Assembly: GCA_014879875.1 (NCBI GenBank)
Contig: JACSRF010000600.1
Span: 3,005 to 67,004, forward strand
Direction of reading: 5' to 3'
Origin: Anaerolinea sp.
Lineage (GTDB): Bacteria; Chloroflexota; Anaerolineae; Promineifilales; Promineifilaceae
DNA length: 64,000 nucleotides
Shown here piece after piece: positions 1 through 64,000 of the stretch (the first letter of the stretch is position 1; each line of letters begins with the position of its first letter). Both the position numbers and the translations under genes were made by a program. The notes under the pieces were generated by a model. The model was not told where the DNA came from and ran no database searches. It was given only the letters and a program-made list of their open reading frames with translations.

Positions 1-457
1 GCGCGGCAGCGAGCGAACAATAATAGGTAGAAACGCCAGAACCCACTTCGATGTACCGGCGTGGTTTGTAGTGACGGAGCATCAGGTAAAGGGTAAGCGC
101 GTCGAGTTCTGTGTACCCCGGCCCAAAGCCCTCGTGAATGATCTCCTGATAACAGGGTAATTGGGCAAACTCGGCGTAATGGTCGGCCAGCATGTGCGCC
201 AGGCTTGTTTTGAATTTATCGAGGTCATATTGGATACCGGCCAGCGCGCTGGGGTGGTTCCAGCGCGCCACGTTCTTTTGCAAGTCAGACAAAACCGGCA
301 AAGGAGAGTAATAATCTTTTTTGCGGACGATATTGTAACCCAGGGCAGCGGCGATAGAGCGGGTTAAGGTGACAAACGGCCGTTCTCCCGCTTTTTTTGT
401 TTTTTCCAGTGTCTCCCACACAGGGCGGGGAAGATTTCGTTGTAGAAATGTCTTCAT
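1..457 (-). CDS. SAM-dependent methyltransferase-like protein, N-terminal part (gene runs off the window)
   Basis: Own translation of the minus strand from ATG at 457-455: MKTFLQRNLPRPVWETLEKTKKAGERPF...YKPRRYIEVGSGVSTYYCSLAAA. IEVGSGxST resembles SAM-binding motif I. There is no stop before position 1, so it is absent from the ORF track. Confidence 0.5.
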   Translation of the reverse strand, partial: MKTFLQRNLPRPVWETLEKTKKAGERPFVTLTRSIAAALGYNIVRKKDYYSPLPVLSDLQKNVARWNHPSALAGIQYDLDKFKTSLAHMLADHYAEFAQLPCYQEIIHEGFGPGYTELDALTLYLMLRHYKPRRYIEVGSGVSTYYCSLAAA

Positions 458-505
458 AATTTCGTTTCCGTTACAGACCTACTCAATTCTCAAGACATGC
501 CTGTA

Positions 506-1666
506 TTATATTGCCTGATCGGCTTCGTAACCGGACAGCGCATTGAGTTGCTTGATAAGCCGCTGCCAGGAAAAACGGCCGTTCTCCTCCCCAATCCGCG
601 CCGCCATCCCCGGCCCCAACTCCTCCGCAAAAAAACGGTTGATCGCCGCCGCCAACGCTGTCGGGTCATCTGGCGGCACGACCAACCCCGTTTGTTCGTG
701 CGTGACTACCTCCGCCAGCCCACCAACGTTTGTCGTAATCACCGGCTTGCCCTGCCCAAACGCCACCTGAATGATGCCGCTTTGCGTGGCGCTGCGATAA
801 GGCAGCACGACCACAGCGGCACGCGCGATGCAGGCCGCCAGCAGTTCATTGGGCAAATAATCATCCACCAACGTCACCGCCTCAGCAATACCCAACCGGG
901 CGATCTGCTCCTGATACAGTGCCGTCCCCTGCCAAAATTCGCCGGCGACGAGCAAATGCAACGGCCGTTGCGCCAACACCGCCGGCAGCGCCGCCAACAG
1001 CACGTCCAGCCCTTTATACGGCCGTACAAACCCGGCAAACAACAACAGCGGCCGATCCGCCGGCAGCGTCCAGGGTAACGCGACCGGCGGCACATCCCCC
1101 AACGCCGCATACGTGGGGTGCGGCGTCACGCACAAGGGGGCGCGCGCGCCTACGTCCGGCAAAATCCGCTGCAAAATAGCGCCGTCTGTCTCCGCATGGA
1201 CAATGTACCCAGCCCCGGCCGCCAACGCCAGCCGCGTCAGCAAAGGGAGCAGCAGGCGCAGCTTCCCCTGTTCGTGCGGCAGCACATTATGGCAAATGAA
1301 CAGCAACTTGGGGCGCGAGGGCAGCCGCCGAATGCCCTGCCCCAACACCGCCCACGCCGGCGCCCAAAACGGATGCCACCATTGCATCACCACCACATCC
1401 GGCTGCCATTGGCGCAGCCGTCGCAGCGCCCGCCGCCAGCTCAGCGGGTTGAGTGGGTCCAGCAGGTACTCGGCGTCGGTTTGCAGCGGCCGTTCGCTGG
1501 GGTCCCGGTCACTGCGCCCCGGAAACAACCAGGTTGGGTACTGCTGCGCAAACGATAGCAACAAAACCTCATGTTGGCGGCGTAATTCCTGCGCCAACAA
1601 TGTGGTGTAATGGGCAATGCCACCGCGATAAGGGTAAGTTGGGCCGATCAAACAATAACGTACCAT
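506..1666 (-). CDS. glycosyltransferase family 4 (GT-B fold)
   Basis: ORF 506..1699. N-terminus MVRYCLIGPTYPYRGGIAHY and C-terminal VVVLPYRSATQSGI...GKPVITTNVGGLAEVVTHEQTG (EX7E-like region) are typical of GT4. I chose ATG at 1666, preceded by TATAAT 6 nt upstream. Confidence 0.85.
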   Translation of the reverse strand: MVRYCLIGPTYPYRGGIAHYTTLLAQELRRQHEVLLLSFAQQYPTWLFPGRSDRDPSERPLQTDAEYLLDPLNPLSWRRALRRLRQWQPDVVVMQWWHPFWAPAWAVLGQGIRRLPSRPKLLFICHNVLPHEQGKLRLLLPLLTRLALAAGAGYIVHAETDGAILQRILPDVGARAPLCVTPHPTYAALGDVPPVALPWTLPADRPLLLFAGFVRPYKGLDVLLAALPAVLAQRPLHLLVAGEFWQGTALYQEQIARLGIAEAVTLVDDYLPNELLAACIARAAVVVLPYRSATQSGIIQVAFGQGKPVITTNVGGLAEVVTHEQTGLVVPPDDPTALAAAINRFFAEELGPGMAARIGEENGRFSWQRLIKQLNALSGYEADQAI

Positions 1667-1745
1667 GCGGGAATTATACCGGTTTTGCCTAAAGCACACG
1701 CCTCACGCTTCACGTTTCCCGCAATCCGCAATACAATCCCCCGCT

Positions 1746-2609
1746 ATGATTCTCATCACCGGCGCCACCGGCTTCATCGGTCGTTCCCTCACCCGCCACC
1801 TGACGGCCGCAGGGTACGAATGGCAGGCATATAACGGCCGTATCAACAACCCCCTCCACCTGCGCCAACAACTCGCCGGGGTGGATGTCGTCATCCACCT
1901 GGCAAGCTCCGAAGCGCGTGGTCGCAACCGCCTGTTGCAACACGTAGACATCGAAGGCACGGAGCGCCTCATCGAAGAGTGTCGCCGCGCCCAGGTACAG
2001 CAGATTATCATCGTCAGCCGCATTGGCGCCGATTCCTACTCATTGCAACCCCTCCTGCGCGCCAAAGGTGACATAGAACGCGCCATCCGCGGCAGCAGCG
2101 TCCCCTACACCATCATCCGCGCCGCCACCCTTTTTGGGCAGGGTGATCGCTTTTCGGAAATCATTTTGGGGCTGGCAATCTGGAGTTGGCCTTTGGTCTG
2201 GCTGCCCGGTGGGGGAACAGTCGCCATGCAGCCCTTGTGGATAGAGGACCTGGCGCGTTGTCTGGTGCAAACAGTGGGCCGCACCGACCTTCTGGGACAA
2301 ACAATTACCGTTGCTGGCGAAGAACGGCTGCGCTATCAGGACATCGCGCGCGAGATTTTAGTGGCCACCGGGCTGCGTCGTCTCCCATTCAACCTGCCAT
2401 TGGTCTTGTTACGGCCGTTCACCACCCTCCTCTTTCGCTGGTGGCATTGGCCGGCCGTCACCGCTTACTTCGCCGACCGCTTTTTTGTGCCCGAAGTCGC
2501 CGACCTGGACAGCGTGCTGCGCGTCTATGGCTTTCGGCCGGCCCACTTACGCGAAACCAGCGCCTACTTACGTCGCCCCGGCCTGCGCTGGCGACTTTTC
2601 CATCGCTAA
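1746..2609 (+). CDS. NAD(P)-dependent epimerase/dehydratase-type SDR (NmrA/NDUFA9-like)
   Basis: ORF 1665..2609. The internal start gives MILITGATGFIGRSL (GxxGxxG Rossmann motif). An atypical SDR, about 287 aa. Confidence 0.8.
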   Translation: MILITGATGFIGRSLTRHLTAAGYEWQAYNGRINNPLHLRQQLAGVDVVIHLASSEARGRNRLLQHVDIEGTERLIEECRRAQVQQIIIVSRIGADSYSLQPLLRAKGDIERAIRGSSVPYTIIRAATLFGQGDRFSEIILGLAIWSWPLVWLPGGGTVAMQPLWIEDLARCLVQTVGRTDLLGQTITVAGEERLRYQDIAREILVATGLRRLPFNLPLVLLRPFTTLLFRWWHWPAVTAYFADRFFVPEVADLDSVLRVYGFRPAHLRETSAYLRRPGLRWRLFHR

Positions 2610-3062: not shown

Positions 3063-5858
3063 ATGACACATATCAGCCGCTACCACGCCTTGGGCATCAT
3101 GGTCATGACCTTATTAATTGCCGCTGCCCTGCGCTTGCCAAATTTGACAACAGCCCCTCCTGGGCTCCATTACGACCTGGCAGCCAATGGCATACTGGCG
3201 GGCGACATCGGTTTCCGTGGTGATCGTCCCGTTTTTATTGCCAGCTATACCGGTAAAGAAGTGCTCTATTTCTACCTGGCCGGCGGGATGATGCGCTTGT
3301 TGGGCGAATCCGTCTTTGCTTTGCGCCTGACGGCCGCTTTCGTCGGCATTCTCACGGTGGCGGCAAGTTACTGGCTGGGGCGGGAGATGGGCTTGGACCG
3401 CCGCGTCGTCCTTATTGCCGTTATTTTGCTCGCCGTCAGCTTTTGGCACCTCCTGTTCAGCCGCTATGGCTTCCGCGCCATCACCCAGCCCTTGTTACAG
3501 GCGCTCACCCTGGCTGCCCTGCTGCGCGGCGTGCGCCGTGACCGATGGGCCTGGCTGGTTGCGGCCGGTACACTGCTTGGCTTAAGCGCCTACACCTACC
3601 TGGCCGTGCGCCTTTTCCCGGCGCTGCTGCTGCTGGCGACGCTGCCTTTGTTGGCGCAGCGGCGCTGGCAGCGCAGCAAGCAATTGCTGCTGGTGTTACT
3701 GCTTGGGGCGCTGGCGCTATCGCCTCTCCTGGCTTACTTTTACCAGCACCCGGAAGCGTTTTGGGTACGCATCACGCAAGTATCGCCGGATACGGCCGTT
3801 GCCCTGCCCCTCACCGACAGCCTCCTCAAATCATTAGAAATGTTCTTCCTCGTCGGCGACCCGTACATTCGCTTCAACCTGCCTGGCCGTCCTCTCTTCA
3901 ACAGCTTTTGGGGAACGTTGCTGGTTGTTGGTTGGTTGTACACACTCTGGCGCTGGTCACAGCCGGCGCAAGATTGGGAGCGCGTCACCAAACTGCTGCT
4001 CCTGCTCAATCCGTTGATCATGCTGCTGCCCACCGCCCTGGCCACCAGCGAAATCGTCCCCAGCAATTTGCGCGCCATTGGCCTGATCCCCCTCATCTTT
4101 TACCTGCCCGGCATTGGCCTGGCGGTACTGCTGCAATCGCTGGAAAATTGGCTGCGCAGCCGTATGGTGACGCTGGCGACGTTGGCGATTGGCCTGGTGG
4201 TGCTGCTGTTGGGCGGCATTACCACCGACCGGCTGTACCACCGTGTTTGGGCCAACAACCCAGAGTTATATTATGAGTCTGATGGGGATCTGGTAGACGT
4301 TGCCCGCTTCCTCGACGAATACGATACAAGCAGCAAGACCATCTACGTCGCCGCCCGCCATTACCAACATCCAACCGTGGCCTTTCTCAGCGACAAGTAT
4401 GGCGCTGTCAACTGGCTGCCGGGCAGCCAGGCGCTTGTCTTTCCTGCTGCAGGACCGTCCCTCCACATTTTCCCGCACAACAGCCCCTTGCCAGATTGGG
4501 CCGCCCCATACTTCACCACAGCGCAACGGCTAACAGAAGGCACAACGGCCGTCGGCCTGGATGCGTTTACGGCTTATGTAACGGCCGTTCCCCCCGCCTT
4601 GCGCCCTAATCATGCCGTCAATGTCAACTTCAGTCACGCCATCACCCTTTTAGGTTACAACGTAAACGTCGCCTACACCGGCGACGCCATGCCCATAACC
4701 CTGTTCTGGCGCGTACAAAACACCCCCCAGGCTGACTACGTGCCTTTTGTCCATCTGGAAGATTTGTGGCAGCATCGCTGGAGCCAGGTGGAGGCCAACG
4801 CTTACCCGGCCGCGCAGTGGCAGCCGGGCGATACCATCATCCAACGAATAGACCTGCCCATCCCGCCCGGCGCGCCCCCCGGTTCCTATCGGCTGCGCAT
4901 TGGCCTGTTTGACCCGACGACGGGAAACCCGCTGGCGCAACTGGATGAAGACGGCCGTTACGCGGGCAGCGCCTTCATCCTCGATCACGTCGGCGTGTTG
5001 GCCGGACCAATCCCCGACGATTTGCCGCGGCCCCCGTTCGCCATCAGCCAGCAAATCATCCCTGGCCTGCGCCTGTTGGGGTACCAACGCGGCGGCGATA
5101 CCGTTTTCACCGGCGATACGTTGGGGCTGGCGCTGTGGTGGGAAGCGACACAACCGCTGCCCAACCTGATCACACGCCTGGAACTGCTGCGCGCCGACAA
5201 CACCGGCCGCATTTTGCTCGACACCCAACCCGTTCATGACGGCTACCCGTTCCGCTACTGGTACACACCCCAATTCCTCATTGACCACGTTGACCCGCGC
5301 ATCCCCGCCGATTTTCCCGCCGGCAATTACCGGCTGCAACTACGTATGCTGGATGAGAAAAACGAAACGCTGCTCAAACAGGGACTTGGCTGGGTGGAGA
5401 TCATCGCCACGGAGCGGCTGTTCACGCCGCCGCCCACGCAGTTTAAGTTAGATATTAACTTTGGCAATGAAATCAGCCTGCGCGGTTATGACGTGGATGT
5501 TTACGGTGATAATCAGTTTACGCTGCGCCTGGTGTGGCAAAGCGCGCAAACGGCCGCCGCCGACTACACCGTCTTTGTCCATGTGCTGGGGCTGGACGGG
5601 ACATGCTGTATCTGGCAGCAAGATACCATGCCACAGCAAAACCAGTACCCCACCACACGCTGGCTGCCAGGCGAGGTCGTCGTGGATACCTACCAGATCG
5701 CTTTGCCCGCTGGCCTGGCGACGGGCAAATATCCGTTGGAGATAGGGTTGTATATGGCGGAGACAGGGCAGCGGTTACAGGTCAGCACAACAATGCCGGG
5801 TACGGCCGTCATCACACCCGATGCGGTTTATTTACGGCCGTTGCTCATTGAGGAGTGA
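3063..5858 (+). CDS. GT39/ArnT-PMT-like membrane glycosyltransferase with large extracytoplasmic C-terminal repeat region
   Basis: 931-aa ORF. The N-terminal ~450 aa are polytopic and hydrophobic with ArnT/PMT-like loops. The C-terminal half contains three ~110-aa related modules (…LLGY…(L/F)WW/FWR…PAGxYxLxIGL…). Confidence 0.8.
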   Translation: MTHISRYHALGIMVMTLLIAAALRLPNLTTAPPGLHYDLAANGILAGDIGFRGDRPVFIASYTGKEVLYFYLAGGMMRLLGESVFALRLTAAFVGILTVAASYWLGREMGLDRRVVLIAVILLAVSFWHLLFSRYGFRAITQPLLQALTLAALLRGVRRDRWAWLVAAGTLLGLSAYTYLAVRLFPALLLLATLPLLAQRRWQRSKQLLLVLLLGALALSPLLAYFYQHPEAFWVRITQVSPDTAVALPLTDSLLKSLEMFFLVGDPYIRFNLPGRPLFNSFWGTLLVVGWLYTLWRWSQPAQDWERVTKLLLLLNPLIMLLPTALATSEIVPSNLRAIGLIPLIFYLPGIGLAVLLQSLENWLRSRMVTLATLAIGLVVLLLGGITTDRLYHRVWANNPELYYESDGDLVDVARFLDEYDTSSKTIYVAARHYQHPTVAFLSDKYGAVNWLPGSQALVFPAAGPSLHIFPHNSPLPDWAAPYFTTAQRLTEGTTAVGLDAFTAYVTAVPPALRPNHAVNVNFSHAITLLGYNVNVAYTGDAMPITLFWRVQNTPQADYVPFVHLEDLWQHRWSQVEANAYPAAQWQPGDTIIQRIDLPIPPGAPPGSYRLRIGLFDPTTGNPLAQLDEDGRYAGSAFILDHVGVLAGPIPDDLPRPPFAISQQIIPGLRLLGYQRGGDTVFTGDTLGLALWWEATQPLPNLITRLELLRADNTGRILLDTQPVHDGYPFRYWYTPQFLIDHVDPRIPADFPAGNYRLQLRMLDEKNETLLKQGLGWVEIIATERLFTPPPTQFKLDINFGNEISLRGYDVDVYGDNQFTLRLVWQSAQTAAADYTVFVHVLGLDGTCCIWQQDTMPQQNQYPTTRWLPGEVVVDTYQIALPAGLATGKYPLEIGLYMAETGQRLQVSTTMPGTAVITPDAVYLRPLLIEE

Positions 5859-5898
5859 GCGGTATTTGGCAATCGGCGTCATGACGCAGTGCGACATG

Positions 5899-5986: not shown

Positions 5987-7195
5987 ATGCTAGATTTTTC
6001 CCTGACCGATGAACAACTGAGTGTAGCCGAGATGGTGCAGCGCTTTGTGGACCACGAAGTATACCCCACCATCAAAGAGTATGACCGCAAACAGCAGATG
6101 AACCCGGCCGTTTTGCCGCGCATGGCAGAATTAGGCATTCTGGGCATCAACATCCCCGTTCGCTATGGCGGGCAGGGATTCGACTACGTAACCCTGGGGC
6201 TGGTGTGCGAAGAACTGGAACGGTGCGATTCGACCCTGCGCGTGGTGATGTCGGTCCACATGGGGCTGAACAGCATGGGCGTGCTGCAATGGGGTACAGA
6301 GGAGCAAAAGCAGCGCTTCCTGACGCCGCAAGCAAAGGGGGAAAAATACGCCGCCTTTGGCCTGACCGAACCAAACGCCGGGTCCGACGTCGCCGCCATG
6401 CGCTCCACCGCCCGCCGCGATGGGGACGACTACATCCTCAATGGCGAAAAGATGTGGATCAGCCTGGCGACGAAGGCGCATCACGTGCTCTGGTTTGCCA
6501 AGACAGACCCGCAGGCAGGGCATCAGGGGATCACCGCATTTATGGTGGAGACGGATATGCCCGGCGTCACCAGCGGCGACATCCATGGCAAGTTGGGGAT
6601 GCGCGCCGGTTCCACAGGCTGGATTAGCTGCCAGGACGTGCGCGTGCCGGCCGCCAACCGTATTGGGGAGGAGGGGGAAGGGTTTAAGATCGCCATGAGC
6701 TGCCTGGATAACGGCCGTTACACCGTTGCCGCCGGCGCGACGGGCCTCATCCGCGCCTGCCTGGATGCCTCCCTCAAATATGCGCAAGAACGGGAAACCT
6801 TCGGCCAACCCATTGCCGCTTACCAGCTCATGCAGCAAAAAATCGCCTTCATGCAGCAGTGGTACGACACCGCGCGGCTGCTCTACCTAAAAGCGGGCTG
6901 GATGAAAAACGAAGGGCTGCGCAACACCCGCGAAACCTCTATGGCGAAATGGTACGCCACCGACCAATCCTTCCAGGCCGCGCACGAAGCCATTCAAATT
7001 CACGGCGCATATGGCTACTCTGACGAGTACGACGTGGAACGCTACCTGCGCAACGGCCGTGGCGCCATTATTTATGAAGGAACCAGCGAAATTCATCAGT
7101 TAATGCAGGCCGGGTATGCGCTGGGCACGCGCAAAGATAGACCATTACGCTGCGAACTGCCCGCTTATGACCCGGATTTTTGGCAAAACGAGTAG
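5987..7195 (+). CDS. acyl-CoA dehydrogenase
   Basis: 402-aa [13 protein letters not shown] start, [11 protein letters not shown] and [10 protein letters not shown] motifs typical of the ACAD family. Followed by etfBA. Confidence 0.92.
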
Positions 7196-7387: not shown

Positions 7388-8185
7388 ATGAAAGTAGTTG
7401 TGTGTACCAAGCAAACGCCCAGCACAACGGCCGTTTTCTCTGTCAATAACGGCGTGGTAAGCTGGGACGATCCCGGTGGCAAGCCCAACGTAGTCAACCC
7501 GTGGGATGAATACGCCATCGAAGAAGGCATTCGCCTCAAGGAAAATCACGGCGCAAGCGACGTGATCGCCCTGGCTGTTGGCGATGAAGACAGCAAAGAA
7601 GCGTTGAAAACCGCGTTGGCGATGGGCTGCACCGACGCCCGCCTGGTCGCCGACGCCGCTTTTGCCGGGTCCGACGCCGTAGGCACGGCGCGCGTGTGGG
7701 CCGCCGCCATCAACCAGATTGGCGACGTCAAGGTTGCCATCTTCGGCAAGCTGACCATTGACGACAACATGAGCGTGGCCGCAATGATGACGGCGCGCAA
7801 ATTGGGCTGGACGCCGCTCACCTTCGTCTCCGCCATCAAAGCGATCAGCGGCGATTCGATCACGGTGGAACGCCTGTTGGACGATGGCAAAGAGACCGTC
7901 ACGGCCCCCCTGCCGGTAGTCATCAGCGTCGTCAAAGAGATCAACGAGCCACGTTATCCCTCCTTTATGGGCATTCGCAAGGCCAACCGCGCCGAAATCC
8001 CGGTGTGGGGCGCGGGCGATTTGAGCGTGGATGGGCCGACGGGCACGGCCGTCAGCAAAGTAGATTGGTCACGTGTGTACGCCATCCCACCGCGCGAAGG
8101 CAGCGTGGAGATGATCGCCGCCGGCAGCGTGGAAGAGCAGGTGGAAATCCTGGTTGATAAATTATTTGAGGAGAAGGTGATATGA
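7388..8185 (+). CDS. etfB: electron transfer flavoprotein subunit beta
   Basis: 265-aa ORF, MKVVVCTKQTP... typical EtfB N-terminus. AGGAGG RBS at 7375-7380. A 4-nt overlap with etfA. Confidence 0.93.
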   Translation: MKVVVCTKQTPSTTAVFSVNNGVVSWDDPGGKPNVVNPWDEYAIEEGIRLKENHGASDVIALAVGDEDSKEALKTALAMGCTDARLVADAAFAGSDAVGTARVWAAAINQIGDVKVAIFGKLTIDDNMSVAAMMTARKLGWTPLTFVSAIKAISGDSITVERLLDDGKETVTAPLPVVISVVKEINEPRYPSFMGIRKANRAEIPVWGAGDLSVDGPTGTAVSKVDWSRVYAIPPREGSVEMIAAGSVEEQVEILVDKLFEEKVI

Positions 8186-9156: not shown

Positions 9157-9178
9157 GCTCACGCTTTTGGGCAGCGCC

Positions 9179-9221
9179 AGACCTGACAGGTTTTTAAAGA
9201 CCTGTCAGGTCTTTTTATTTT
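9179..9221 (+). terminator. rho-independent terminator (GACCTGTCAGGTC hairpin family)
   Basis: AGACCTGACAGG (9179-9190) pairs with CCTGTCAGGTCT (9201-9212), giving a 12-bp stem, followed by TTTTTATTTT. Confidence 0.85.
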
Positions 9222-56319: not shown

Positions 56320-57143
56320 TTGCGTACCGTCCATTTGTACCAAAGGATGCCGATCAGCGCCGCTGCTGCGCCGCCAACGATGGAGGAGATCAGGTTGACC
56401 AGGTCGTTATTCAGCCAGAACCAGCCGCGTAACGGCCGTGTCGCCGTGCCACATTTATGAATTTTACGCTCTGTATCTTTCTGGCAGGTGTCGCAGTAGT
56501 AGATTTGCTGAATGGTCGCCCCCATCAGGCTGTCGGTCAGGCTGCCAATCAACCCGCCCATGGCCCCGGCCAACGCCACCCGACCAAGCATTTTTTCATC
56601 GCGTGTTTGTTGCAGCAATCCAGCCACCAGCCCGATGAGCAGACCGCCGGCAAAGGAAACGGCCGTGCCCAACCACGACACCCCGCCCGACGTACCTACC
56701 TCCACCACCTGGCCGGTGGTAATGAGGCGCGGTGGATTTTTGCTCAATGTGCCCAATTCAGTCGCCCAGGTATCGGCCGTCACCGTTGCCATCACGCCAA
56801 CGAATAGGAAGAACCAGATGGGCGAGGGAAACAGCGCACTGAGCACAGCCAGACCCGCTCCCAACCCGCCATTGGCCAGCACTTGCCCCATGTCGCGCCG
56901 GTGTCCTTTTTCAAACTTTTCGGCGGCCGCGCGTTTTTCCGCCTCCTTAAAGTGGGAGAGCAGGCTGGAACTGACAAAAAAAATCGCCAGCAGCGCCCCC
57001 CATACCCAACCCCCTAGCCCAAACGTTAGCGTCCCCACCACCAGCGCGCCCGCTGCGCCCGATTTTGACAGTGACCCGCGCCACAGCGCCAGCCCGGCAA
57101 TCAGGCTGCTTAACCCGATGGCAATTGCTAAACTTTGCACCAT
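56316..57143 (-). CDS. DUF92/TMEM19-family integral membrane protein
   Basis: 275 aa. Gly-rich polytopic pattern typical of DUF92, with a Cys-containing insert YYCDTCQKDTERKIHKCG near the C-terminus. Confidence 0.7.
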   Translation of the reverse strand: MVQSLAIAIGLSSLIAGLALWRGSLSKSGAAGALVVGTLTFGLGGWVWGALLAIFFVSSSLLSHFKEAEKRAAAEKFEKGHRRDMGQVLANGGLGAGLAVLSALFPSPIWFFLFVGVMATVTADTWATELGTLSKNPPRLITTGQVVEVGTSGGVSWLGTAVSFAGGLLIGLVAGLLQQTRDEKMLGRVALAGAMGGLIGSLTDSLMGATIQQIYYCDTCQKDTERKIHKCGTATRPLRGWFWLNNDLVNLISSIVGGAAAALIGILWYKWTVRK

Positions 57144-57781
57144 ACGTCTTCCTTGAAGATAGCGAGGATTAAAAGATGATGGGATTAAGAAAAATCCCCC
57201 AATCCCTTAATCCCCGCATGTCGTTTATCTATGAAGCGAGAGCAATTTGCTCGCCCAGTAGCGAGCAAGTTTACCAAACGCCCCGGCAATTGGCGACACA
57301 ACGACCGCCCCTTTCAACCGACGCCCGGATTTGCAGTAGGGTGGCAGGAATTCCAATTATGCCTTGTTCACTGGGAATGAATTCCCAGGCTGAGGCAAAA
57401 AACGTGCTGAAGCACGTTAGGGCGACACCCCCCAACCCGTTTTAACGGGTTTTGTGTCTCAGACGCCGGTTTCAACCGTGTCAATAGCGCACAAGTTCCA
57501 TCATTAGAATTGCTGGTAGGGTGATCGTCGGTTTACGATTTCACGTTTTTTTTGTACAATCTCGCCCTAAATAGCTCGTTATCATTGTGCAAGTTATCCA
57601 ATAAATTGAAGGACATGACACCTGATAGGCTTGACGCATGACACATGTCACATGACATGCGCCACAGAATGCGGCACACTGTATGAGCAAGCAGTCTTCT
57701 GGGCGAACATGTCTGTGATCACCCACAATGACAGCAAGCAATCACTTAAAAAATCACACTAATTTTGGAGAGAAACTTCCC

Positions 57782-59032
57782 ATGGCTGAAAATTTGAATC
57801 CTTTTGCAATTGCGCAGGCGCAGCTCGATGAAGCTGCTGAAGTATTAGGACTAGACCCCGACATGCACGCCTTTCTACGGCGGCCCCAGCGGGAATTCCA
57901 CTTCTCGATTCCCGTGAAGATGGATGATGGCACAACAAAAACGTTTCAGGGCTTCCGCGTGCAGTACAATGACGCGCGCGGCCCGGCCAAAGGTGGCATT
58001 CGCTTCCACCCCGATGAGACCATAGATACGGTGCGTGCGTTGGCGGCGTGGATGACCTGGAAAACGGCCGTTGCCGACATCCCCCTCGGTGGCGGCAAAG
58101 GCGGCGTCATTTGCAACCCACGTGAACTATCTACCGGCGAACTAGAACGGCTCAGCCGTGGCTACATGCGCAACATCGCCCGTTACGTCGGCCTCTTCCA
58201 GGACTCGCCCGCCCCCGACGTCAACACCAACCCCCAAATCATGGCCTGGATGCTGGATGAATATGAAACCATCATGGGGCATCGGGAACCGGGAACCATC
58301 ACCGGCAAACCATTAGCTTTAGGTGGTTCCGCCGGCCGGGGTCCGGCGACGGCCATGGGCGGCATGTACACCATCCGCGAAGCAGCCAAAGTATTAGGGA
58401 TTGAGTTGAAAGGAGCGACGGCGGCCATCCAGGGCTTTGGCAACGTCGGCTCTTTTGCCGCCAAGCTGGCGCAAGAAATGTTTGGCATCAAGGTCATTGC
58501 CCTCAGCGATGAATTCGGCGGCATCTACAATGCCAATGGGTTCGATTACCACGAAGTGGCGGCGCACATGGCGAAAACGGGCAAGGTCATTGACTTCCCC
58601 GGCAGCGTCCCCATCTCCAACAAAGATTTGCTAGAATTAGGCGTGGATATCCTGATTCCGGCAGCCATTGAGAACCAATTGACCTCGGCCAATGCGGAAA
58701 ATATCAAAGCGAAGATCATTGCCGAATTGGCCAACGGCCCCACAACGCCAGACGCCGACAACGTCTTTGAGCGCAAGGGCATTTATGTCATCCCCGACTT
58801 CCTGTGCAACGCGGGCGGCGTCACCGTCTCTTACTTTGAAATGGTGCAAAATGCCTACCAGTATTACTGGACAGAAGAGATGGTCAATCAACGCCTGGAC
58901 GAGAAGATGACCCATGCGTTCCACGCCGTCCACAACATGGCGCAGCAGAAAAAGGTGTACACCCGTGTGGCCGCTTACCTGGTTTCGGTGAGCCGGGTAG
59001 CCGAAGCGGTGCGTCTGCGCGGTTGGGTATAA
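57782..59032 (+). CDS. gdhA: NAD(P)-specific glutamate dehydrogenase
   Basis: MAENLNPF... start after GGAGAG. GGGKGG catalytic-Lys region, GFGNVG dinucleotide motif. Confidence 0.92.
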   Translation: MAENLNPFAIAQAQLDEAAEVLGLDPDMHAFLRRPQREFHFSIPVKMDDGTTKTFQGFRVQYNDARGPAKGGIRFHPDETIDTVRALAAWMTWKTAVADIPLGGGKGGVICNPRELSTGELERLSRGYMRNIARYVGLFQDSPAPDVNTNPQIMAWMLDEYETIMGHREPGTITGKPLALGGSAGRGPATAMGGMYTIREAAKVLGIELKGATAAIQGFGNVGSFAAKLAQEMFGIKVIALSDEFGGIYNANGFDYHEVAAHMAKTGKVIDFPGSVPISNKDLLELGVDILIPAAIENQLTSANAENIKAKIIAELANGPTTPDADNVFERKGIYVIPDFLCNAGGVTVSYFEMVQNAYQYYWTEEMVNQRLDEKMTHAFHAVHNMAQQKKVYTRVAAYLVSVSRVAEAVRLRGWV

Positions 59033-59086: not shown

Positions 59087-59126
59087 AGACCTGACAGACC
59101 CGGCGAGACCTGTCAGGTCTTTTTTA
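59087..59126 (+). terminator. rho-independent terminator (GACCTGTCAGGTC hairpin family)
   Basis: AGACCTGACAG (59087-59097) pairs with CTGTCAGGTCT (59110-59120), then TTTTTT. Confidence 0.85.
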
Positions 59127-59271
59127 CTTGCGAAAATAGAACATTTATGCTATAAATCTGGTGAAAAACAATATCGAAAACAGCTTTTGTTGACAGGAAA
59201 AATGTGTTACCATTGCCCCATCGTGCATAACATCCCAACCATTTATCACACAACATATAAAGGAGTGGCTC

Positions 59272-59700
59272 ATGTATCAAAAGATCATCATTGTGGGAAA
59301 TCTGGGGCGAGACCCGGAGATGCGTTACATGCCGGATGGAACGGCCGTTACCAATTTCAACCTGGCATCTTCGCGACGTTGGACTGGCGCTGATGGGCAG
59401 TCCCGTGAGGAAACAACCTGGTTTCGGATAGAGGTTTGGCGTAAACAAGCCGAGACAGCAAACCAATATCTGAACAAAGGCAGCAAGGTGCTGGTTGAAG
59501 GACGTATTAAACCCGATCCAAACACCGGGGGACCGCGCCTGTGGACGCGCCAGGACGGTACGGTTGGCGCCAGTTTCGAGGTCGTTGCCGATACGGTTCG
59601 TTTCCTGACCCCCAAAGGCGGCGAAGGCAGCTATGCCGGTGGCGGCGATTATAGCGAGGAAGGCGCGCCAGCCCACGAAGAAGACGACATCCCGTTCTAG
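59272..59700 (+). CDS. ssb: single-stranded DNA-binding protein
   Basis: 142 aa. An OB-fold N-terminus (MYQKIIIVGNLGRDPEMRY), a Gly-rich linker, and the acidic tip EEDDIPF. Confidence 0.93.
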   Translation: MYQKIIIVGNLGRDPEMRYMPDGTAVTNFNLASSRRWTGADGQSREETTWFRIEVWRKQAETANQYLNKGSKVLVEGRIKPDPNTGGPRLWTRQDGTVGASFEVVADTVRFLTPKGGEGSYAGGGDYSEEGAPAHEEDDIPF

Positions 59701-59925: not shown

Positions 59926-60180
59926 ATGATGCGGCGCATGGTAAGCGATACCGGCAAGTTACGGCAGCCAACTCATTACCAGGCTTACCTGGTTCGTTTG
60001 TGGCGGGAGAATGAGACTGCGCCCTGGCGGGTGATGGTAACGGATGTACCGACGGGGGCGCAGCGCCATTTCGCCAGCCTGGATGCCTGTTTTGTGTTTA
60101 TACAAAGAGATCTGGACACGGCCGTTATCGCCAAAGAAACAGATCGGGAATTCAAGGACGGGAAGAACCCAACCACATAA
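59926..60180 (+). CDS. small hypothetical protein (YLVRLWRE...WR...TG...FASL type)
   Basis: 84-aa ORF. The pattern HYQAYLVRLWRENETAPWRVMVTDVPTGAQRHFASLDACFVFI is one I recall as a recurrent small-protein family in Chloroflexota, cyanobacteria and actinobacteria. Confidence 0.5.
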   Translation: MMRRMVSDTGKLRQPTHYQAYLVRLWRENETAPWRVMVTDVPTGAQRHFASLDACFVFIQRDLDTAVIAKETDREFKDGKNPTT

Positions 60181-60190
60181 GGAGCGTGTT

Positions 60191-62077
60191 ATGAAACAAA
60201 TAGGAATCGTATTTACTTTACTCACCATTGTCGGGTTTGCGGCCCTGGGGTTGGTCTGGCCCAGTCAGGCCGCGCCCACGCAAAACATCATCATTGTCAC
60301 CATCACCGACGACGCCGAATGGCCGGATGGCTTTTGTTCGCTGCGCGAGGCGCTGCACAACGCCAATAACAACATGCAGATATTCAACGGTGAAGGAGAA
60401 TGCGCCGCCGGTTCCGCCAGCGAGACCGATGTCATTCGGCTTACCAGCGGCGAGACCTATTCCCTGACCCTGCCCGGCAATGGGGATGACGAAGGGGATT
60501 TGGATATTCTAAACAATAGTCTGCCGCTTGACCTGCGCATTGACGCGGATGGGGCCGTCGCGGCCACCATCAACATGACCATCGCCGGCCAACGGGTGAT
60601 GGAGATTCATGGCGCAGTAGTGGAAATAGACAACGTGACCATAAGCGGCGGCGTTCACCCCGATGCTGGCGGCGGCATCCTGAACAATGGCGGCGCACTG
60701 ACCCTGACGAACGTGAGCCTGCAAAACAACAGCGCCAATTCGGGGGGCGGCCTTTACAATGACAACGGTACGGTTCTGGTCGGCGATAACACGCAGATCG
60801 TCCTCAACACAGGCGCATTGGGCGGCGGTGGCATCTTCAACAGTGGCGTGCTGACCGTTAGCAACAGCATGGTTCGGGCCAATAACAGTTCCGGTGGGTC
60901 TGGCGGCGGCATTTACAATGGTGGCGGGACGCTGGTTGTGCAAGAAAACAGCGCCGTTAATTTGAACACGGCCGCTTTCGATGGCGGCGGTATCTACCTG
61001 ACCAACGACACCGTTTCGGCCCACATTCAGCACAGCATGGTGGATGGCAACCAGGCCGACAACGATGGCGGCGGCATCTATTTTGCATCATTGTCTTACG
61101 AGAAGCTGCTGCTGGAACACAGCCAGATCAACGGCAATACGGCCGGGCAAAATGGCGGCGGCGCCTGGGTCGCCGCCCAGATAAACCACACACAAATTAA
61201 TGACAACAGCGCGGCTAACATTGGCGGTGGACTGTACACCTCTGGCAGCTTTTTCTTGCATGACGTCGCCGTGCGCGGGAACACGGCCGTTTCTGGCGGC
61301 GGTTTGGGCGGTGGTCAGGTTTATGCGACACAGCTTATTGTGGCCGAAAATGAAGCCGATCAGCGCGGTGGTGGTTTATACGTCTCATATGTAGAACTGC
61401 AAGATAGCCAGGTTATCAGCAACACGGCCGGAACCGATGGTGGCGGCCTCTATTCAGACAACAACATATTCGTCAATAATGCCGCCCGTCTGGAACGCGT
61501 ACTGGTAGCCCACAACAACGCGACCAATGGCGGCGGCGTCTGGGCGGGCCGGCGCATGACTCTGGGCAATGTCACCATCAGCAGCAACGGCGCCCAGGCC
61601 GATGGCGGCGGCCTGTACATTGACGCCAGCGGTATCGTCACCGCTACCAACGTCACCCTGGCCATCAACATGCCCGGCGTAGATTTGTACAAAGAGGGCG
61701 AGATGACGCTGCAAAACAGCATTATCAGCAATCTAGACCAGCCTAACTGCGCGCTGATTGCCACGCCCATTAACTCCCTCGGCAACAACCTCTCTGATGA
61801 TAATTCTTGCCAGGGGCTGGACGAGCCAACGGACATCGTTGATCCAGACACGCTGCTTGGTCCACTGGCGAATAACGGCAGTAACACGCCAACCCACGCC
61901 CTGCTGGATGGCAGCCCAGCCATTGACAGTGGCGATGACGCTGCCTGCGCCGAGCCATTGGTCAATGGCGTGGATCAGCGCGGTCTGCCCCGTCCTTATG
62001 GCGACGCCTGCGACATAGGCGCACATGAGGAGCAGCCCCCCTACCGTCTCTATTTGCCGGTTGTGATACGGCCGTAA
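60191..62077 (+). CDS. secreted parallel beta-helix repeat protein (choice-of-anchor-Q-like / PMP-repeat-like)
   Basis: MKQIGIVFTLLTIVGFAALGLVWPSQA signal peptide after AAGGAG. DGFCSLREALHNANNN motif. Many GGG(I/L)Y(N/S) beta-helix turns. The C-terminus is ...GAHEEQPPYRLYLPVVIRP. Confidence 0.85.
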   Translation: MKQIGIVFTLLTIVGFAALGLVWPSQAAPTQNIIIVTITDDAEWPDGFCSLREALHNANNNMQIFNGEGECAAGSASETDVIRLTSGETYSLTLPGNGDDEGDLDILNNSLPLDLRIDADGAVAATINMTIAGQRVMEIHGAVVEIDNVTISGGVHPDAGGGILNNGGALTLTNVSLQNNSANSGGGLYNDNGTVLVGDNTQIVLNTGALGGGGIFNSGVLTVSNSMVRANNSSGGSGGGIYNGGGTLVVQENSAVNLNTAAFDGGGIYLTNDTVSAHIQHSMVDGNQADNDGGGIYFASLSYEKLLLEHSQINGNTAGQNGGGAWVAAQINHTQINDNSAANIGGGLYTSGSFFLHDVAVRGNTAVSGGGLGGGQVYATQLIVAENEADQRGGGLYVSYVELQDSQVISNTAGTDGGGLYSDNNIFVNNAARLERVLVAHNNATNGGGVWAGRRMTLGNVTISSNGAQADGGGLYIDASGIVTATNVTLAINMPGVDLYKEGEMTLQNSIISNLDQPNCALIATPINSLGNNLSDDNSCQGLDEPTDIVDPDTLLGPLANNGSNTPTHALLDGSPAIDSGDDAACAEPLVNGVDQRGLPRPYGDACDIGAHEEQPPYRLYLPVVIRP

Positions 62078-62150
62078 TCGGTAAACCGTAAACCGTGAAC
62101 CGTGAACCGTGAACCGTATTCCATAAACGGAACACGGTTTACGGTTCACG
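62072..62150. repeat. heptamer-periodic inverted array filling a convergent intergenic spacer
   Basis: CCGTAAT CGGTAAA CCGTAAA CCGTGAA x3 CCGTATT CCATAAA CGGAACA CGGTTTA CGGTTCA. The left and right halves are in opposite orientation, giving an imperfect long hairpin. Confidence 0.9.
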
Positions 62151-62155
62151 ATCTA

Positions 62156-64000
62156 TCAGGGCAATGCGTAACAGTTGCCTGTCCCCTGGATAACCGTATG
62201 GTCATGGTTCGCCACCAGGACACAGAGTTGGGTTGCCGCTGCTGGCCGGTCGGCCAGGCCGTAGCCGATGAACGGGCTGGGGCCGCCGTAGACGAACCAG
62301 GGGCCGCTGCCCGGCACGCCCGCCTGCTCCGGCGGCACGGTATTGAAGAAGAAGTGGACGTGGGTGTGCATCACGTCAGGCGTGAAGCCATAGGTCTGGA
62401 AGGCCACGCTGTACTGGTTGCCATCCAGGGAGATGCCGGTGATTTCAGCGTATTGGCCCGGCGCGGCGTAGTTGTTGAGAATGAGGGGGAGGAAGAGCGT
62501 ATTGCTGCCTTCCACCAAGACGTATTGCGTCAGCAAGGGCGTCTCCAGAATGCAGTGAACCAGTTGCGCGCTGCTGTCGGTGTTGCAAGAGACCCCGCCG
62601 CTTTGCCAACGGCCGTCTTCCCAATAACGCAGCGTCAACCGATCCAGGTTTAGCCCGGCCACATCGTTCGGGTCATAGCTCAGGCTGACGTGGGCCGTCT
62701 CGTAGAGGCGATAATTGCTCAACAGGCTGTTTTCCTGGTAAGCGTCCAGGTAGAAAGCGCGGCCGGCGTAGGGCAGGTCGCCCAGGCTGGCAGGCAGGCC
62801 GGTTTCCTCATAGGTCACAAGCGTATCGGCGAAGACGGAACCGCCGGGTAAGGTGAGTTGGCTGCCGCTGGCACTCAACGTGCCAGTGGTCACGGCCGTT
62901 AACCACACCTGCGCGTCCACAATTCGCGTCGGCACGGGGCTGTCGTTTTGCGCCATGAAGCCGCCGTCTGCCGTCACGCTGTAATCATCGTTGACCACAT
63001 CGTTGCTGGCGCTGACGGTGAAGGTGAGAACGGCCGTTTGCCCATACCCACCTAACTCAGGAATCGTCCACTGCACCTCATTCCCCACCAGCGCGCCGCC
63101 GCCCAGATAAGTCACTCCAGCAGGCAGCACATCTCGCACCAGCAAGTTGGTCGCCGTCAGCGCGCCGCTGTTGACGACGGTCAGGGTGTAGGTGAAGGGT
63201 TGGTTGGGAACGGCCGTTGCCGGGCCAACCTTACTGATGCTCAAATCCGGGTCAGGGCCGCTGCTGATGCGCGCGGACTGGATCGCCCCGGCAAACGCGC
63301 CGCAGTTCGCCGCCTGCACAGAGATGATCTGCTCCCCGGCCTGGTCAAAGCGGAAGGCGGCATTGGGGAAACCTTGCCCCGTCTCCGGCTCTGGCGTCCA
63401 GGTGAAGGTGATGGGGATGGAGGCATTGAGAGGGGAAACGGCCGTGCTAAACAGCAGCAGTTCATCCACCAACCCCGTATTCGGCCCGCTCAGCGTCACG
63501 TCAGCCACGGCCACACCACACCCGGCTGGTAATATGGTGAAACTGCCCAGCACATCCCCGTCTTGCACATTGGGGGCCTCCCCGTCGCCGCTCTTGCTGT
63601 CCACGCGGAATTCTACATTGTAGACGCCGATGGCCGCCGGGCCAAAGGTCAACGTCGGCGTCATAACTGCCGTCAGGCCAGAGCCAGAAAAACTGCTGGT
63701 TGCCAGGTGCAACGATACCGTGTCGGTCAGAACCAGGGTCAGGTTTTCGCCCGGTAAGCCTTCGCCCATAATTTCCTCGGAGGCATTGAGCAGCCGGTAG
63801 AAACTGCCCGCTCCTGGCTGTTCGACGACGCGCACCCAGGCGGCCGTTTCGCCCGCCTCATTCCGCAGGCGCATATCCATGTACTGCATATCCCGCCACG
63901 TGCCGGTGGTGATCGGGGCCGTCCAGCTAATGGCAAAGGTCTGACTTACGCCCACGCTGATGCTGCTGCCCGATTCGGGATGGAGTAAGCTGCTTTCCCC
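62156..64000 (-). CDS. DUF11/conserved-repeat-type secreted protein, C-terminal part (5' end probably outside the window)
   Basis: The ORF is open to the window edge, and the listed M at 63955 is a GTG. DLSISKVGPATAVPNQPFTYTLTVVNSGALTATNLLVRDVLPAGVTYL is a DUF11-like repeat. There is an internal LFLPLILNN motif and a 104-aa C-terminal domain. Confidence 0.75.
   Translation of the reverse strand, partial: GESSLLHPESGSSISVGVSQTFAISWTAPITTGTWRDMQYMDMRLRNEAGETAAWVRVVEQPGAGSFYRLLNASEEIMGEGLPGENLTLVLTDTVSLHLATSSFSGSGLTAVMTPTLTFGPAAIGVYNVEFRVDSKSGDGEAPNVQDGDVLGSFTILPAGCGVAVADVTLSGPNTGLVDELLLFSTAVSPLNASIPITFTWTPEPETGQGFPNAAFRFDQAGEQIISVQAANCGAFAGAIQSARISSGPDPDLSISKVGPATAVPNQPFTYTLTVVNSGALTATNLLVRDVLPAGVTYLGGGALVGNEVQWTIPELGGYGQTAVLTFTVSASNDVVNDDYSVTADGGFMAQNDSPVPTRIVDAQVWLTAVTTGTLSASGSQLTLPGGSVFADTLVTYEETGLPASLGDLPYAGRAFYLDAYQENSLLSNYRLYETAHVSLSYDPNDVAGLNLDRLTLRYWEDGRWQSGGVSCNTDSSAQLVHCILETPLLTQYVLVEGSNTLFLPLILNNYAAPGQYAEITGISLDGNQYSVAFQTYGFTPDVMHTHVHFFFNTVPPEQAGVPGSGPWFVYGGPSPFIGYGLADRPAAATQLCVLVANHDHTVIQGTGNCYALP

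Follow-up and report, generated by a model that had tools for sequence, protein, structure and literature searches.

Highly iterated palindromes (HIPs) are described from cyanobacteria, where HIP1 is GCGATCGC and the others are GGGATCCC, TCGATCGA and CAGGCCTG. Since the first description of HIP1 in 1993, debate over its function has continued between a repair ratchet, a role in chromosome structure and a signal for uptake or recombination. It reaches 300-2700 copies per Mb, or 16 to 317 times the second-order Markov expectation. Here we analyse 64,000 nucleotides from an uncultured member of the Chloroflexota, Anaerolinea sp. (assembly GCA_014879875.1, contig JACSRF010000600.1, positions 3,005 to 67,004; hereafter the window), in which the top 8-mer is likewise a single palindromic octamer, ACGGCCGT, with 1500 copies per Mb and a second-order ratio of observed to expected copies (O/E) of 39. 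We consider ACGGCCGT to be, very probably, a DNA element of the HIP class and not a mobile repeat.

Conserved orphan methyltransferases, encoded in the same genomes (Elhai 2015), act on the core of HIP1 (PMC4390886, PMC6105098). Copies of HIP1 are conserved in excess, and an abundance of this kind is reported to be absent outside cyanobacteria (PMC5861425). A quasi-periodic spacing of HIP1 has been described at 10-90 kb (Xu et al. 2018), a scale to be read beside a window of only 64 kb. Methylated HIP1 raises the efficiency of transformation and integration up to 100-fold (10.1101/2024.09.10.611283; 10.64898/2026.06.24.733823), and a Chi-like role has been suggested for it (10.1101/2024.09.10.611283).

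The likeness of ACGGCCGT to HIP1 extends to isolated copies in three frames, spread by substitution rather than insertion, weak flank extensions, a lineage-wide distribution with exceptions among close relatives, and conservation of copies well above that of control palindromes. In both words the core is a classical target of methyltransferases and restriction enzymes, CGGCCG/GGCC here and CGATCG/GATC in HIP1. The two nevertheless differ in word and in phylum (Chloroflexota versus Cyanobacteriota); because GCGATCGC has 0 copies in the window and the phylum is another one, ACGGCCGT is not HIP1 proper. Cognate methyltransferases, the main mechanistic clue, are known for HIP1, whereas the reader of ACGGCCGT is putative; HIP1 is enriched in non-coding DNA also, whereas the window has no non-coding copy of ACGGCCGT; and a tailed phage and a conjugative-type element carry ACGGCCGT at a density no lower than here.

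Other systems resemble ACGGCCGT less closely. The DNA uptake sequences (DUS) of Neisseria and the uptake signal sequences (USS) of Pasteurellaceae share with it a density of about one copy per kb, a location mostly in genes and in all frames, over-represented tripeptides, a family-wide distribution and a core with weaker flanks. They are, however, asymmetric words of 9-12 bp, whereas ACGGCCGT and its 16-bp extension are palindromic; DUS and USS belong to naturally competent species in which an uptake receptor has been demonstrated, and DUS often form inverted pairs in terminators. Chi and the FtsK-orienting polar sequences (KOPS) are over-represented words too, only 5-8 nt long and recognised by machines that process DNA, but they are asymmetric and strand-skewed relative to replication; since a perfect palindrome carries no orientation, ACGGCCGT is not of this type. 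Repetitive extragenic palindromes (REP), bacterial interspersed mosaic elements (BIME) and miniature inverted-repeat transposable elements (MITE) are palindromic and highly repeated too, but they are imperfect, 20-150 bp long, intergenic and spread in a transposition-like manner, whereas ACGGCCGT is 8 bp long and intragenic with unique flanks. A restriction-modification target under avoidance, finally, is scarce in host and phage, and ACGGCCGT is the opposite: because it is over-represented in the host and reaches 3.6 per kb in a phage, it is not an avoided restriction target.

In full-text searches of the literature, neither ACGGCCGT as a genomic word nor HIPs in Chloroflexota nor any relevant CGGCCG methylomes turned up, in line with an earlier model-made reading of the bare sequence (the original prediction), which knew of no described equivalent. 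Of the HIP hallmarks that sequence can test, abundance, three frames, origin by substitution, a lineage trait and excess conservation are found for ACGGCCGT; the exception is enrichment in non-coding DNA, on which the window and other loci of the clade differ. It is a second, independent example of a HIP, a new sequence in a new phylum, and not a new category of element.

Abundance in the window

An exact string search across the window returned 96 copies of ACGGCCGT (1.5 per kb, about one per 670 bases). The original prediction had logged about 95 by eye; the coordinates it listed were correct to within 1-2 nt apart from 1844, which is truly 1834, and its G+C content of about 58% has to be lowered to 56.0%. 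ACGGCCGT is the top octamer of the window by far: octamers that do not overlap it have 23 copies at most, and the runner-up among palindromic octamers, GGCGCGCC, has 13.

The excess stood under all the null models. In 100 dinucleotide shuffles of the window the expectation was 1.70 +/- 1.13 copies (maximum 4); at Markov orders 0, 2 and 3 it was 1.5, 2.5 and 4.4, giving O/E values of 64, 39 and 22, and the O/E near 1 at orders 5-6 arises because such models contain the word's own 6- and 7-mers. Permuting codons within genes 1000 times gave 2.58 +/- 1.65 (maximum 9). The expectation by composition or codon permutation, 1.5-2.6, bears out the roughly 2 copies and 50-fold excess originally estimated, and the word is 40-60-fold over-represented in the host. 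With all protein sequences kept, 1000 synonymous-codon shuffles raised the expectation to 11.58 +/- 3.01 (maximum 21). Even when the pairs of the word itself are built into a codon-pair chain, the model expects 9.8 copies in frame 0 against 44 observed, and 3.9 in frame 1 against 35; the excess is therefore not due to one codon pair. Neither an O/E close to 1 under a codon-preserving null nor a single dipeptide or codon pair behind the enrichment, the two outcomes named beforehand as fatal to a DNA-level signal, was seen in the window.

Position, spacing and site architecture

All 96 copies are intragenic and lie in 47 ordinary genes on both strands, and they occupy all three frames, as had been predicted: 44 are in frame 0 (ACG GCC GTn, read as TAV), 35 in frame 1 (nAC GGC CGT, read as N/D/Y/H-G-R) and 17 in frame 2 (x-R-P-x). 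The host genes include those for a glycosyltransferase, acyl-CoA dehydrogenase, electron transfer flavoprotein (ETF), RsgA, TGT, RsmF, a Lon-like protease, ABC-F, CoaE, Sat/CysC, PrmC, Sua5, glutamate dehydrogenase and large secreted repeat proteins. Spacing is Poisson-like, with a coefficient of variation of 0.91, a Kolmogorov-Smirnov test against the exponential giving p = 0.63, and a variance/mean ratio of 0.97 in 2-kb bins; this fit rules out regular or clustered spacing in the window at the scale of 0.1-60 kb. No tandem structure or long repeat surrounds the copies in the window, where the information in the flanks is gone beyond +/-4 nt.

The hexamer CGGCCG occurs 203 times in the window, flanked by A...T in 96 cases, by one of the two outer bases in 66 and by neither in 41. 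The 66 sites with a single preferred outer base (ACGGCCGC/A/G and complements) compare with about 15 expected; they are the outer-position variants NCGGCCGT/ACGGCCGN, and confirm that one-mismatch relatives of the word are common. Words with one mismatch in the inner six bases number 10 against about 25 expected. The CGGCCG core is near-obligatory, and A/T are favoured at the outer positions.

Around the octamer lies a weak symmetric extension with the consensus GGnA-ACGGCCGT-TnCC. A at -1 and T at +8 stand at about 50%, and G at -4/-3 and C at +10/+11 at 50-60%; the longer word AACGGCCGTT, to which many copies had been said to extend, accounts for 25 of the 96. The preference holds under codon-position control; C at +10, for instance, is found in 58 copies where 27 are expected. 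Chromosomal relatives, metagenome contigs and several mobile-element contigs show it as well, and one phage does not.

Outside the window, at 3446-3482 of the contig L242, two copies make a perfect palindrome of about 30 nt, AAAAAACGGCCGTTTCCCGCGGGAAACGGCCGTT, directly after a stop codon. It resembles a terminator-type hairpin made of ACGGCCGT and has no counterpart in the window.

Origin of the copies and coding consequences

The word leaves a strong imprint on the encoded proteins. In the window 44 of the 45 TAV tripeptides are encoded by ACGGCCGT, where codon usage predicts 17%, and so are 35 of the 38 (N/D/Y/H)GR tripeptides, where it predicts 5%. TAV itself is 4.3 times as frequent as amino-acid composition predicts (45 versus 10.4), NGR 5.3 times (17 versus 3.2) and DGR 3.3 times (15 versus 4.6); because nearly every TAV is encoded by the word, it is the word that causes the TAV excess. 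The signal is at the level of DNA and is not a protein motif.

How copies come about can be seen where the codons of the Sat/CysC-PrmC-Sua5 block and of GlyRS are aligned between bearers of the word and non-bearers. At conserved Y/H-G-R positions the copy is a matter of codon choice: bearers use TAC GGC CGT, and non-bearers TAT GGC CGC or TTC GGC CGC. Many other copies came with amino-acid replacement, as where IAI, VAV, SAI, HAV, LVV or MAL became TAV, or where PDR or QDR became NGR. The Sat/CysC copy at 55564-55571 was made by amino-acid changes, since the relatives have PDR or QDR there. In orthologue alignments ACGGCCGT stands opposite non-copy sequence without gaps, and each copy of the word has been written in place by point substitutions, some of them synonymous and others changing the amino acid. 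The sole indel seen beside a copy is in PrmC (53648-53655), where the window is one codon short relative to the 97.9%-identical loci L082 and L083.

Distribution among Chloroflexota

The closest proteins to Sat/CysC of the window come from uncultured Chloroflexota that bear the labels Anaerolineales, Promineifilaceae or Ardenticatenaceae. Logan assemblies of at least two sequencing runs (SRR26809235 and SRR33233605) contain the same species, with 97.9% nucleotide identity over 9.66 kb, and keep 10 of the 10 copies of that stretch. A contig scan of GTDB species representatives found no relative above 75% identity.

We surveyed 80 loci around Sat/CysC in GTDB species representatives. The word was dense in only three, all in metagenome-assembled genomes (MAGs) of Chloroflexota: L002 (1.43 per kb), L010 (0.85) and L012 (0.36). 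It stayed at or below 0.31 per kb in Promineifilum, in all other phyla and in uncultured Ardenticatenaceae that are equally distant at the protein level. A further bearer, L081 (GCA_020432715.1), has 1.04 per kb at 63.7% G+C. Searching through GlyRS added L343 (GCA_964407335.1; 2.85 per kb), L341 (1.98), L346 (GCA_020634245.1; 1.59), L339 (GCA_020634395.1; 1.50), L347 (Ca. Leptofilum; 1.31) and L345 (GCA_014879345.1; 0.73), which cover 50-63% G+C, for a total of ten independent bearer loci with 0.36-2.85 copies per kb and 50-64% G+C. Bearers number at least 12 MAGs of Ardenticatenia/Promineifilales, at 0.4-3 copies per kb. The G+C content of bearers ranges from about 50 to 65%, and Ca. Leptofilum is placed in the NCBI taxonomy in Chloroflexota; Ardenticatenia; Promineifilales; Promineifilaceae. 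The trait is seen alike in independent NCBI, ENA, JGI and Logan assemblies. ACGGCCGT is therefore heritable and marks a clade of Ardenticatenia/Promineifilales at about the rank of a family, with motif-poor sister lineages.

In two of the motif-poor Promineifilum loci (L009 and L011) the top octamer is the non-palindromic GCGGCCGA/TCGGCCGC, with 23-25 copies per 22 kb, and CGGCCG occurs 77 times against a second-order Markov expectation of 37-43, an excess of about twofold. A weaker enrichment of the CGGCCG core may thus extend beyond the ACGGCCGT clade. GATC, for its part, is below the mononucleotide expectation in several motif-bearing sequences: 176 versus 242 in the window, 43 versus 83 in L346, 42 versus 83 in L347 and 32 versus 56 in L084.

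Phages, mobile elements and an unrelated satellite

IMG/VR and metagenome contigs were scanned with patterns of clustered ACGGCCGT, which returned IMG/VR contigs with 1.7-3.7 copies per kb. One is a 65.5-kb phage, IMGVR_UViG_3300048592_001391, with genes for a large terminase, a portal, a head-morphogenesis protein, a head protease, ParB, an HsdM-like methyltransferase fragment and a D12-class methyltransferase; two stretches of it, of 20.6 and 13.6 kb, hold 75 and 48 copies respectively (about 3.5-3.7 per kb). Another contig, L205, encodes a tape measure and a minor tail protein and has 1.7 per kb, and a conjugative-type element, L099 (FtsK/SpoIIIE, SLT, ParA, RadC and an antirepressor), has 3.7. 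Among chromosomal metagenome contigs, L241 (GlyRS, MutS2) has 3.1 per kb and L250 (FtsK) 2.6. The idea that mobile elements are denser than chromosomes is ruled out by chromosomal contigs at 2.6-3.1 per kb (L241, L343, L250). Phages and mobile elements, presumably those of the bearer clade, match the density of their hosts. The original prediction had foreseen neither this nor the family-level distribution.

In viral contigs the pair pattern ACGGCCGT-N(1-30)-ACGGCCGT found chiefly chance pairs among the matches listed. A triple pattern was cleaner, yet about a third of its metagenome matches were a 12-bp satellite, TACACGGCCGTG, whose contigs were left out of the pooled statistics given below. 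Over kilobases, this degenerate 12-bp tandem produces 5-18 copies per kb of ACGGCCGT and GTGTACAC. The satellite was found in L277 (3596-6064), in L265, L287, L286 and L252, and in about 35 further short JGI contigs (Ga0056108_*, Ga0056133-5_*, Ga0209259_*, Ga0209459_*). The satellite is unrelated to the dispersed word.

Conservation of copies and near-miss words

Synteny between two of the bearer loci, L339 and L341, extends over 16.2 kb, with a nucleotide identity of 79.5%. Shared and aligned copies number 22, out of 27 in L339 and 30 in L341, and one further pair lies 3 nt apart. By comparison, 21% of all octamers, 24% of those with six G/C and 0 of 13 other palindromes of 75% G+C are conserved between the two. 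The Jaccard index is 0.63 for ACGGCCGT and 0.28 for other abundant octamers. Orthologous copies are kept about three times better than other octamers, and their immediate flanks are conserved no better than the background.

In 384 kb of pooled motif-bearing loci, of which a few qualify only by a local cluster so that the figures are approximate, perfect copies number 795, and words that depart from ACGGCCGT at a single one of its inner six bases number 123. Inner transversion variants are depleted (60 versus 102 expected, O/E about 0.6), and inner transition variants are not (63 versus 57), with ACGGTCGT/ACGACCGT at 18 versus 10. A depletion of every inner one-mismatch variant, as seen in the window, was thus not replicated for transition variants in the relatives. 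Near-miss words appear to be consumed, and perfect copies to decay chiefly by transitions; from the ratio of 795 to 123, the force that turns a one-mismatch word into a perfect one can be put, very roughly, at 100 times the neutral back-mutation rate.

Taken with the null models, the frames, codon choice, proteome distortion and lineage distribution, this excess conservation upholds the original prediction of a DNA-level, HIP1-like element.

Candidate mechanisms

The original prediction had suggested a link to an orphan methyltransferase, to biased mismatch repair or to recombination. A sequence-specific, symmetric and lineage-restricted force would require a lineage-specific reader protein, and because the site is symmetric this would be a dimer or an enzyme that is itself symmetric. 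If HIP1 is a guide, the likeliest reader would be an orphan DNA methyltransferase whose target is the CGGCCG/GGCC core, along with the reader of that mark. DNA with the marked word might then be favoured in recombination, in repair, or when incoming DNA is taken up and established. Selection or biased fixation would lead to the gain and retention of copies, and the phages and elements resident in these cells would come to carry the word as well. A methylation-linked mechanism for ACGGCCGT is a tentative proposal, somewhat short of even odds. Whether the whole chain of this preferred explanation holds, with ACGGCCGT as a methylation-linked 'self' word that would favour its own DNA in recombination, repair or uptake, seems to us finely balanced. 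A more far-reaching reading is a second, independently evolved HIP system with a lineage-specific, probably methylation-linked reader, which would give carriers an advantage and so would account for the convergence of chromosome, conjugative element and phage; we assign it a probability of roughly 0.4.

Several observations weigh against the preferred explanation. The window encodes no DNA methyltransferase, Vsr or competence genes. No homologue of a C5-methyltransferase or of Vsr was found in the fetched loci, which include about 0.4 Mb of motif-dense sequence, with approximate queries; since a 5-Mb genome has one to few such genes, this negative carries little weight. In tblastn searches the approximate sequences of M.HaeIII, M.HhaI and Vsr matched only on a viral contig that is not dense in the word, and regular expressions for the C5 and N4/N6 catalytic motifs gave nothing convincing in the dense loci. 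The only DNA methyltransferases seen are encoded by two genes of the motif-dense phage (L348, at 9548-10639 and 15025-15912), one an HsdM-like N6_Mtase fragment that adjoins ParB and the other a D12-class enzyme. They are not associated with the word: neither has close viral relatives on motif-dense contigs, and the contig of the nearest viral homologue has 0 copies. The D12 family includes enzymes that make N6-methyladenine at GATC and also ones that make N4-methylcytosine at GGCC (PMC4390886, PMC6105098). The graded footprint of 16 bp is wider than typical type II methyltransferase sites. In the 5.9 kb of non-coding DNA of the window there is no copy, where about 5.5 would be expected at the enrichment of coding DNA; other motif-bearing loci have 102 non-coding copies in 40 kb, in a sample biased by having been collected through clusters of ACGGCCGT, and these rule out an absence from non-coding DNA as a general property. 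Selection, finally, is not proven, because the excess conservation also fits a mutational or repair ratchet.

A separate observation is a lone ORF for a 190-aa HNH_2 (PF13391) endonuclease-like protein at 19734-20306 (+), between the RsmF gene and the hydrolase and NUDIX genes; no methyltransferase gene stands beside it.

The main rival, a repair ratchet, would make the word a functionless by-product of biased repair, in which a methyltransferase combined with very-short-patch or methyl-directed mismatch repair turns near-misses into perfect copies, a model proposed for HIP1 (Elhai's ratchet; PMC4390886). It would fit the origin of copies by substitution and the scarcity of near-miss words (795 perfect copies to 123 in the pooled loci, 10 to about 25 expected in the window); continual re-conversion would also give excess conservation, and resident prophages and plasmids would gain the word passively. 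The variant spectrum speaks otherwise: T:G-to-C:G repair of the Vsr type should deplete C-to-T and G-to-A variants, but these stand at or above expectation and it is the transversions that are depleted. The outer A/T preference, and position-8 C-to-T changes relative to GC-rich relatives, are not T-to-C conversions, and no Vsr or MutH-like gene was seen in the loci at hand, a tiny sample. The spectrum argues against the simplest, Vsr-type form of this account, which as a whole we regard as unlikely; other biased-repair schemes may apply.

Less likely again is a DNA uptake sequence, or a conjugative or transformation sequence, for which a receptor preferring word-bearing fragments would enrich the word through biased uptake and recombination, as with DUS and USS. 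The density of about 1-3 per kb, the copies within genes in all frames with a distorted proteome, the clade-wide presence over very different G+C contents and the occurrence on phages and a conjugative-type element would all suit it. On the other side, the known examples are 9-12 bp and non-palindromic, there is no enrichment of inverted pairs at gene ends, and the window has 0 non-coding copies. We know of no documented natural transformation in the bearer clade. An uptake role has been proposed for HIP1 (10.64898/2026.06.24.733823; 10.1101/2024.09.10.611283).

The word could also be the binding site of an abundant nucleoid-associated or chromosome-organising dimer that reads about 16 bp, with copies kept for the shape of the chromosome, in keeping with the structural role that others have suggested for HIP1 (PMC5861425). 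The symmetric 16-bp consensus, which survives control for codon phase and recurs across lineages, and the excess conservation of copies favour this idea. Against it stand the Poisson spacing, without regularity or clustering at 0.1-60 kb, the immediate flanks conserved no better than background, and the phage that has the octamer without the flank preference; nor does it give a clear reason for phages to carry even more copies, and we think it improbable.

The reading without any DNA element, as a by-product of codon usage, codon pairs or peptides, a mobile repeat or satellite, or an assembly artefact, can draw on the rise of the expectation from 2.6 to 11.6 under synonymous shuffling (TAV and xGR peptides being frequent) and on the word-containing 12-bp satellite of unrelated metagenome contigs, but it is refuted by the 96 copies against 11.6 +/- 3.0 in three frames and on both strands, by the shortfall of the codon-pair chain (9.8 versus 44 and 3.9 versus 35), by a peptide excess that is itself due to the word (44 of 45 TAV), by the lack of tandem structure, of conserved flanks past 16 bp and of indels at copies in alignments, and by the same trait in independent assemblies.

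Copies along the window

The window (1-64,000) is an ordinary chromosomal segment of an uncultured member of the Chloroflexota from the Ardenticatenia/Promineifilales neighbourhood, with 96 dispersed copies of ACGGCCGT. Coordinates of copies are from the exact search and are given without strand; frame, peptide and ORF strand are as assigned. The peptide in brackets gives the frame: TAV is frame 0, NGR, DGR, HGR and YGR are frame 1, and peptides with RP are frame 2.

At the left end, a copy at 376-383 (ERPF) lies in the ORF 2-457 (-), and copies at 575-582 (NGR), 961-968 (QRPL) and 1018-1025 (VRPY) in the glycosyltransferase ORF 506-1699 (-). The epimerase ORF 1665-2609 (+) has copies at 1834-1841 (NGR) and 2411-2418 (LRPF). 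ORF 3063-5858 (+) has them at 3792-3799, 4545-4552, 4581-4588 and 5802-5809 (all TAV), at 4951-4958 (DGR) and at 5834-5841 (LRPL). The acyl-CoA dehydrogenase ORF 5987-7195 (+) follows with 6711-6718 and 7053-7060 (both NGR), the ETF-beta ORF 7388-8185 (+) with 7427-7434 and 8045-8052 (both TAV), and ORF 9167-11248 (+) with 9277-9284 (KRPS), 9990-9997 (NGR) and 11114-11121 (TAV). Next are the YceI ORF 11541-12227 (+), with 12114-12121 and 12171-12178 (both TAV); the RsgA ORF 12575-13465 (+), with 12745-12752 (VRPS) and 13383-13390 (NGR); and ORF 13513-14484 (+), with 13606-13613 (TAV), 13880-13887 (NGR), 14261-14268 and 14351-14358 (both DGR).

The protein kinase ORF 14710-15555 (-) bears 14746-14753 and 14998-15005 (both DGR) and 14786-14793 (TAV), and the FmrO ORF 15656-16549 (-) bears 15858-15865, 15954-15961 and 16431-16438 (all TAV). 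The latter is an FmrO-family 16S rRNA methyltransferase gene of the aminoglycoside-resistance type, adjoining the Ser/Thr protein kinase gene. Copies at 17086-17093 (HGR) and 17384-17391 (TAV) fall in the TGT ORF 16795-17907 (-), those at 18639-18646 (TAV) and 19039-19046 (NGR) in the RsmF ORF 17991-19370 (+), those at 20631-20638 (NGR) and 20699-20706 (TAV) in ORF 20330-20806 (+), and those at 20850-20857 (HGR) and 21285-21292 (DGR) in the NUDIX ORF 20810-21364 (+). The Lon-like ORF 21417-23834 (-) holds 21634-21641 (TAV) and 22272-22279 (NGR), and the ABC-F ORF 23891-25984 (+) holds 25033-25040 (LRPS) and 25629-25636 (DGR). In the CoaE ORF 25959-27422 (+) are 26601-26608 (TAV), 26637-26644 (TAV), which has the full 16-mer GGAAACGGCCGTTCCC, and 26957-26964 (ARPS).

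Farther on, the FAD-oxidase ORF 29675-31054 (-) contains 30348-30355 and 30975-30982 (both TAV) and 30524-30531 (DGR); ORF 31818-33464 (+) contains 32025-32032, 32136-32143 and 32985-32992 (all TAV), 32413-32420 (DGR) and 32863-32870 (NGR); and ORF 33508-37536 (-) contains 33659-33666, 34472-34479, 35900-35907, 36959-36966 and 37235-37242 (all TAV), 34627-34634 and 36403-36410 (both DGR). The methyltransferase-fold ORF 37931-38878 (-) has 38012-38019 (NGR) and the tightest pair of the window, 38094-38101 and 38112-38119 (both TAV), 18 nt apart from start to start. The NYN ORF 39728-40945 (+) has 39873-39880 (NGR) and 40477-40484 (ERPL), ORF 40982-41440 (-) has 41151-41158 (TAV), the HD-domain ORF 42359-43306 (+) has 42453-42460 and 42993-43000 (both DGR), ORF 43389-45554 (-) has 43777-43784, 44629-44636 and 44890-44897 (all TAV) and 44454-44461 (YGR), and the hexapeptide-transferase ORF 46708-47445 (-) has 46938-46945 (KRPS).

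The cyclase/AAA/TPR ORF 47670-51803 (+) encodes a 1377-aa adenylate/guanylate cyclase-AAA_16-TPR protein that resembles TOMM kinase/cyclase fusions; its copies at 48989-48996 (QRPS), 49269-49276 (TAV) and 51070-51077 (YGR) are present too in the Logan strains L082/L083. The Sua5 ORF 52486-53142 (-) has a copy at 52926-52933 (LRPF) that is common to L002, where the peptide is QRPF. In the PrmC ORF 53139-53999 (-), the copy at 53648-53655 (ERPL) adjoins the one-codon indel relative to L082, and the one at 53964-53971 (YGR) is common to L081 and L002. The Sat/CysC ORF 54598-56343 (-) has one at 55051-55058 (YGR), common to L081, L002 and L010, where non-bearing relatives use TAT GGC CGC or TTC GGC CGC, besides that at 55564-55571 (NGR). 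The DUF92 ORF 56316-57143 (-) carries 56432-56439 (TRPL) and 56659-56666 (TAV), the glutamate dehydrogenase ORF 57728-59032 (+) carries 58064-58071 (TAV), and ORF 59113-59676 (-) carries 59341-59348 (NGR). At the right end, ORF 60044-62077 (+) has 60118-60125 (TRPL), 61283-61290 (TAV) and 62068-62075 (IRP-stop), which overlaps its stop codon, and the DUF11 ORF 62156-64000 (-) has 62609-62616 (DGR) and 62892-62899, 63030-63037, 63210-63217 and 63438-63445 (all TAV). The ORFs 33508-37536 (-), 60044-62077 (+) and 62156-64000 (-) encode big secreted repeat proteins (choice-of-anchor Z/Q, CSLREA, DUF11); these three genes and the cyclase fusion bear ACGGCCGT like other genes.

Implications

The distortion of the proteome, with its excess of TAV, NGR and DGR, bears on evolutionary-rate and codon-model analyses of these bacteria. 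As a k-mer, ACGGCCGT is also a strong marker with which contigs can be binned and phages and plasmids assigned to uncultured hosts, some of the bearers being filamentous bacteria of activated sludge. Long-read MAGs of the clade exist (Microflora Danica bins and a 2.3-Mb contig of Ca. Leptofilum), so that the methylation state is readable from public raw data.

The HIP phenomenon has gone unexplained for 30 years and has so far been effectively one example in one phylum. ACGGCCGT is an independent replicate, and one that offers a span of 50-65% G+C, motif-free sister genera (Promineifilum) and motif-laden phages. Motif density can be profiled against gene content for both words and the results intersected; if our interpretation is true, this may expose a common HIP machinery.

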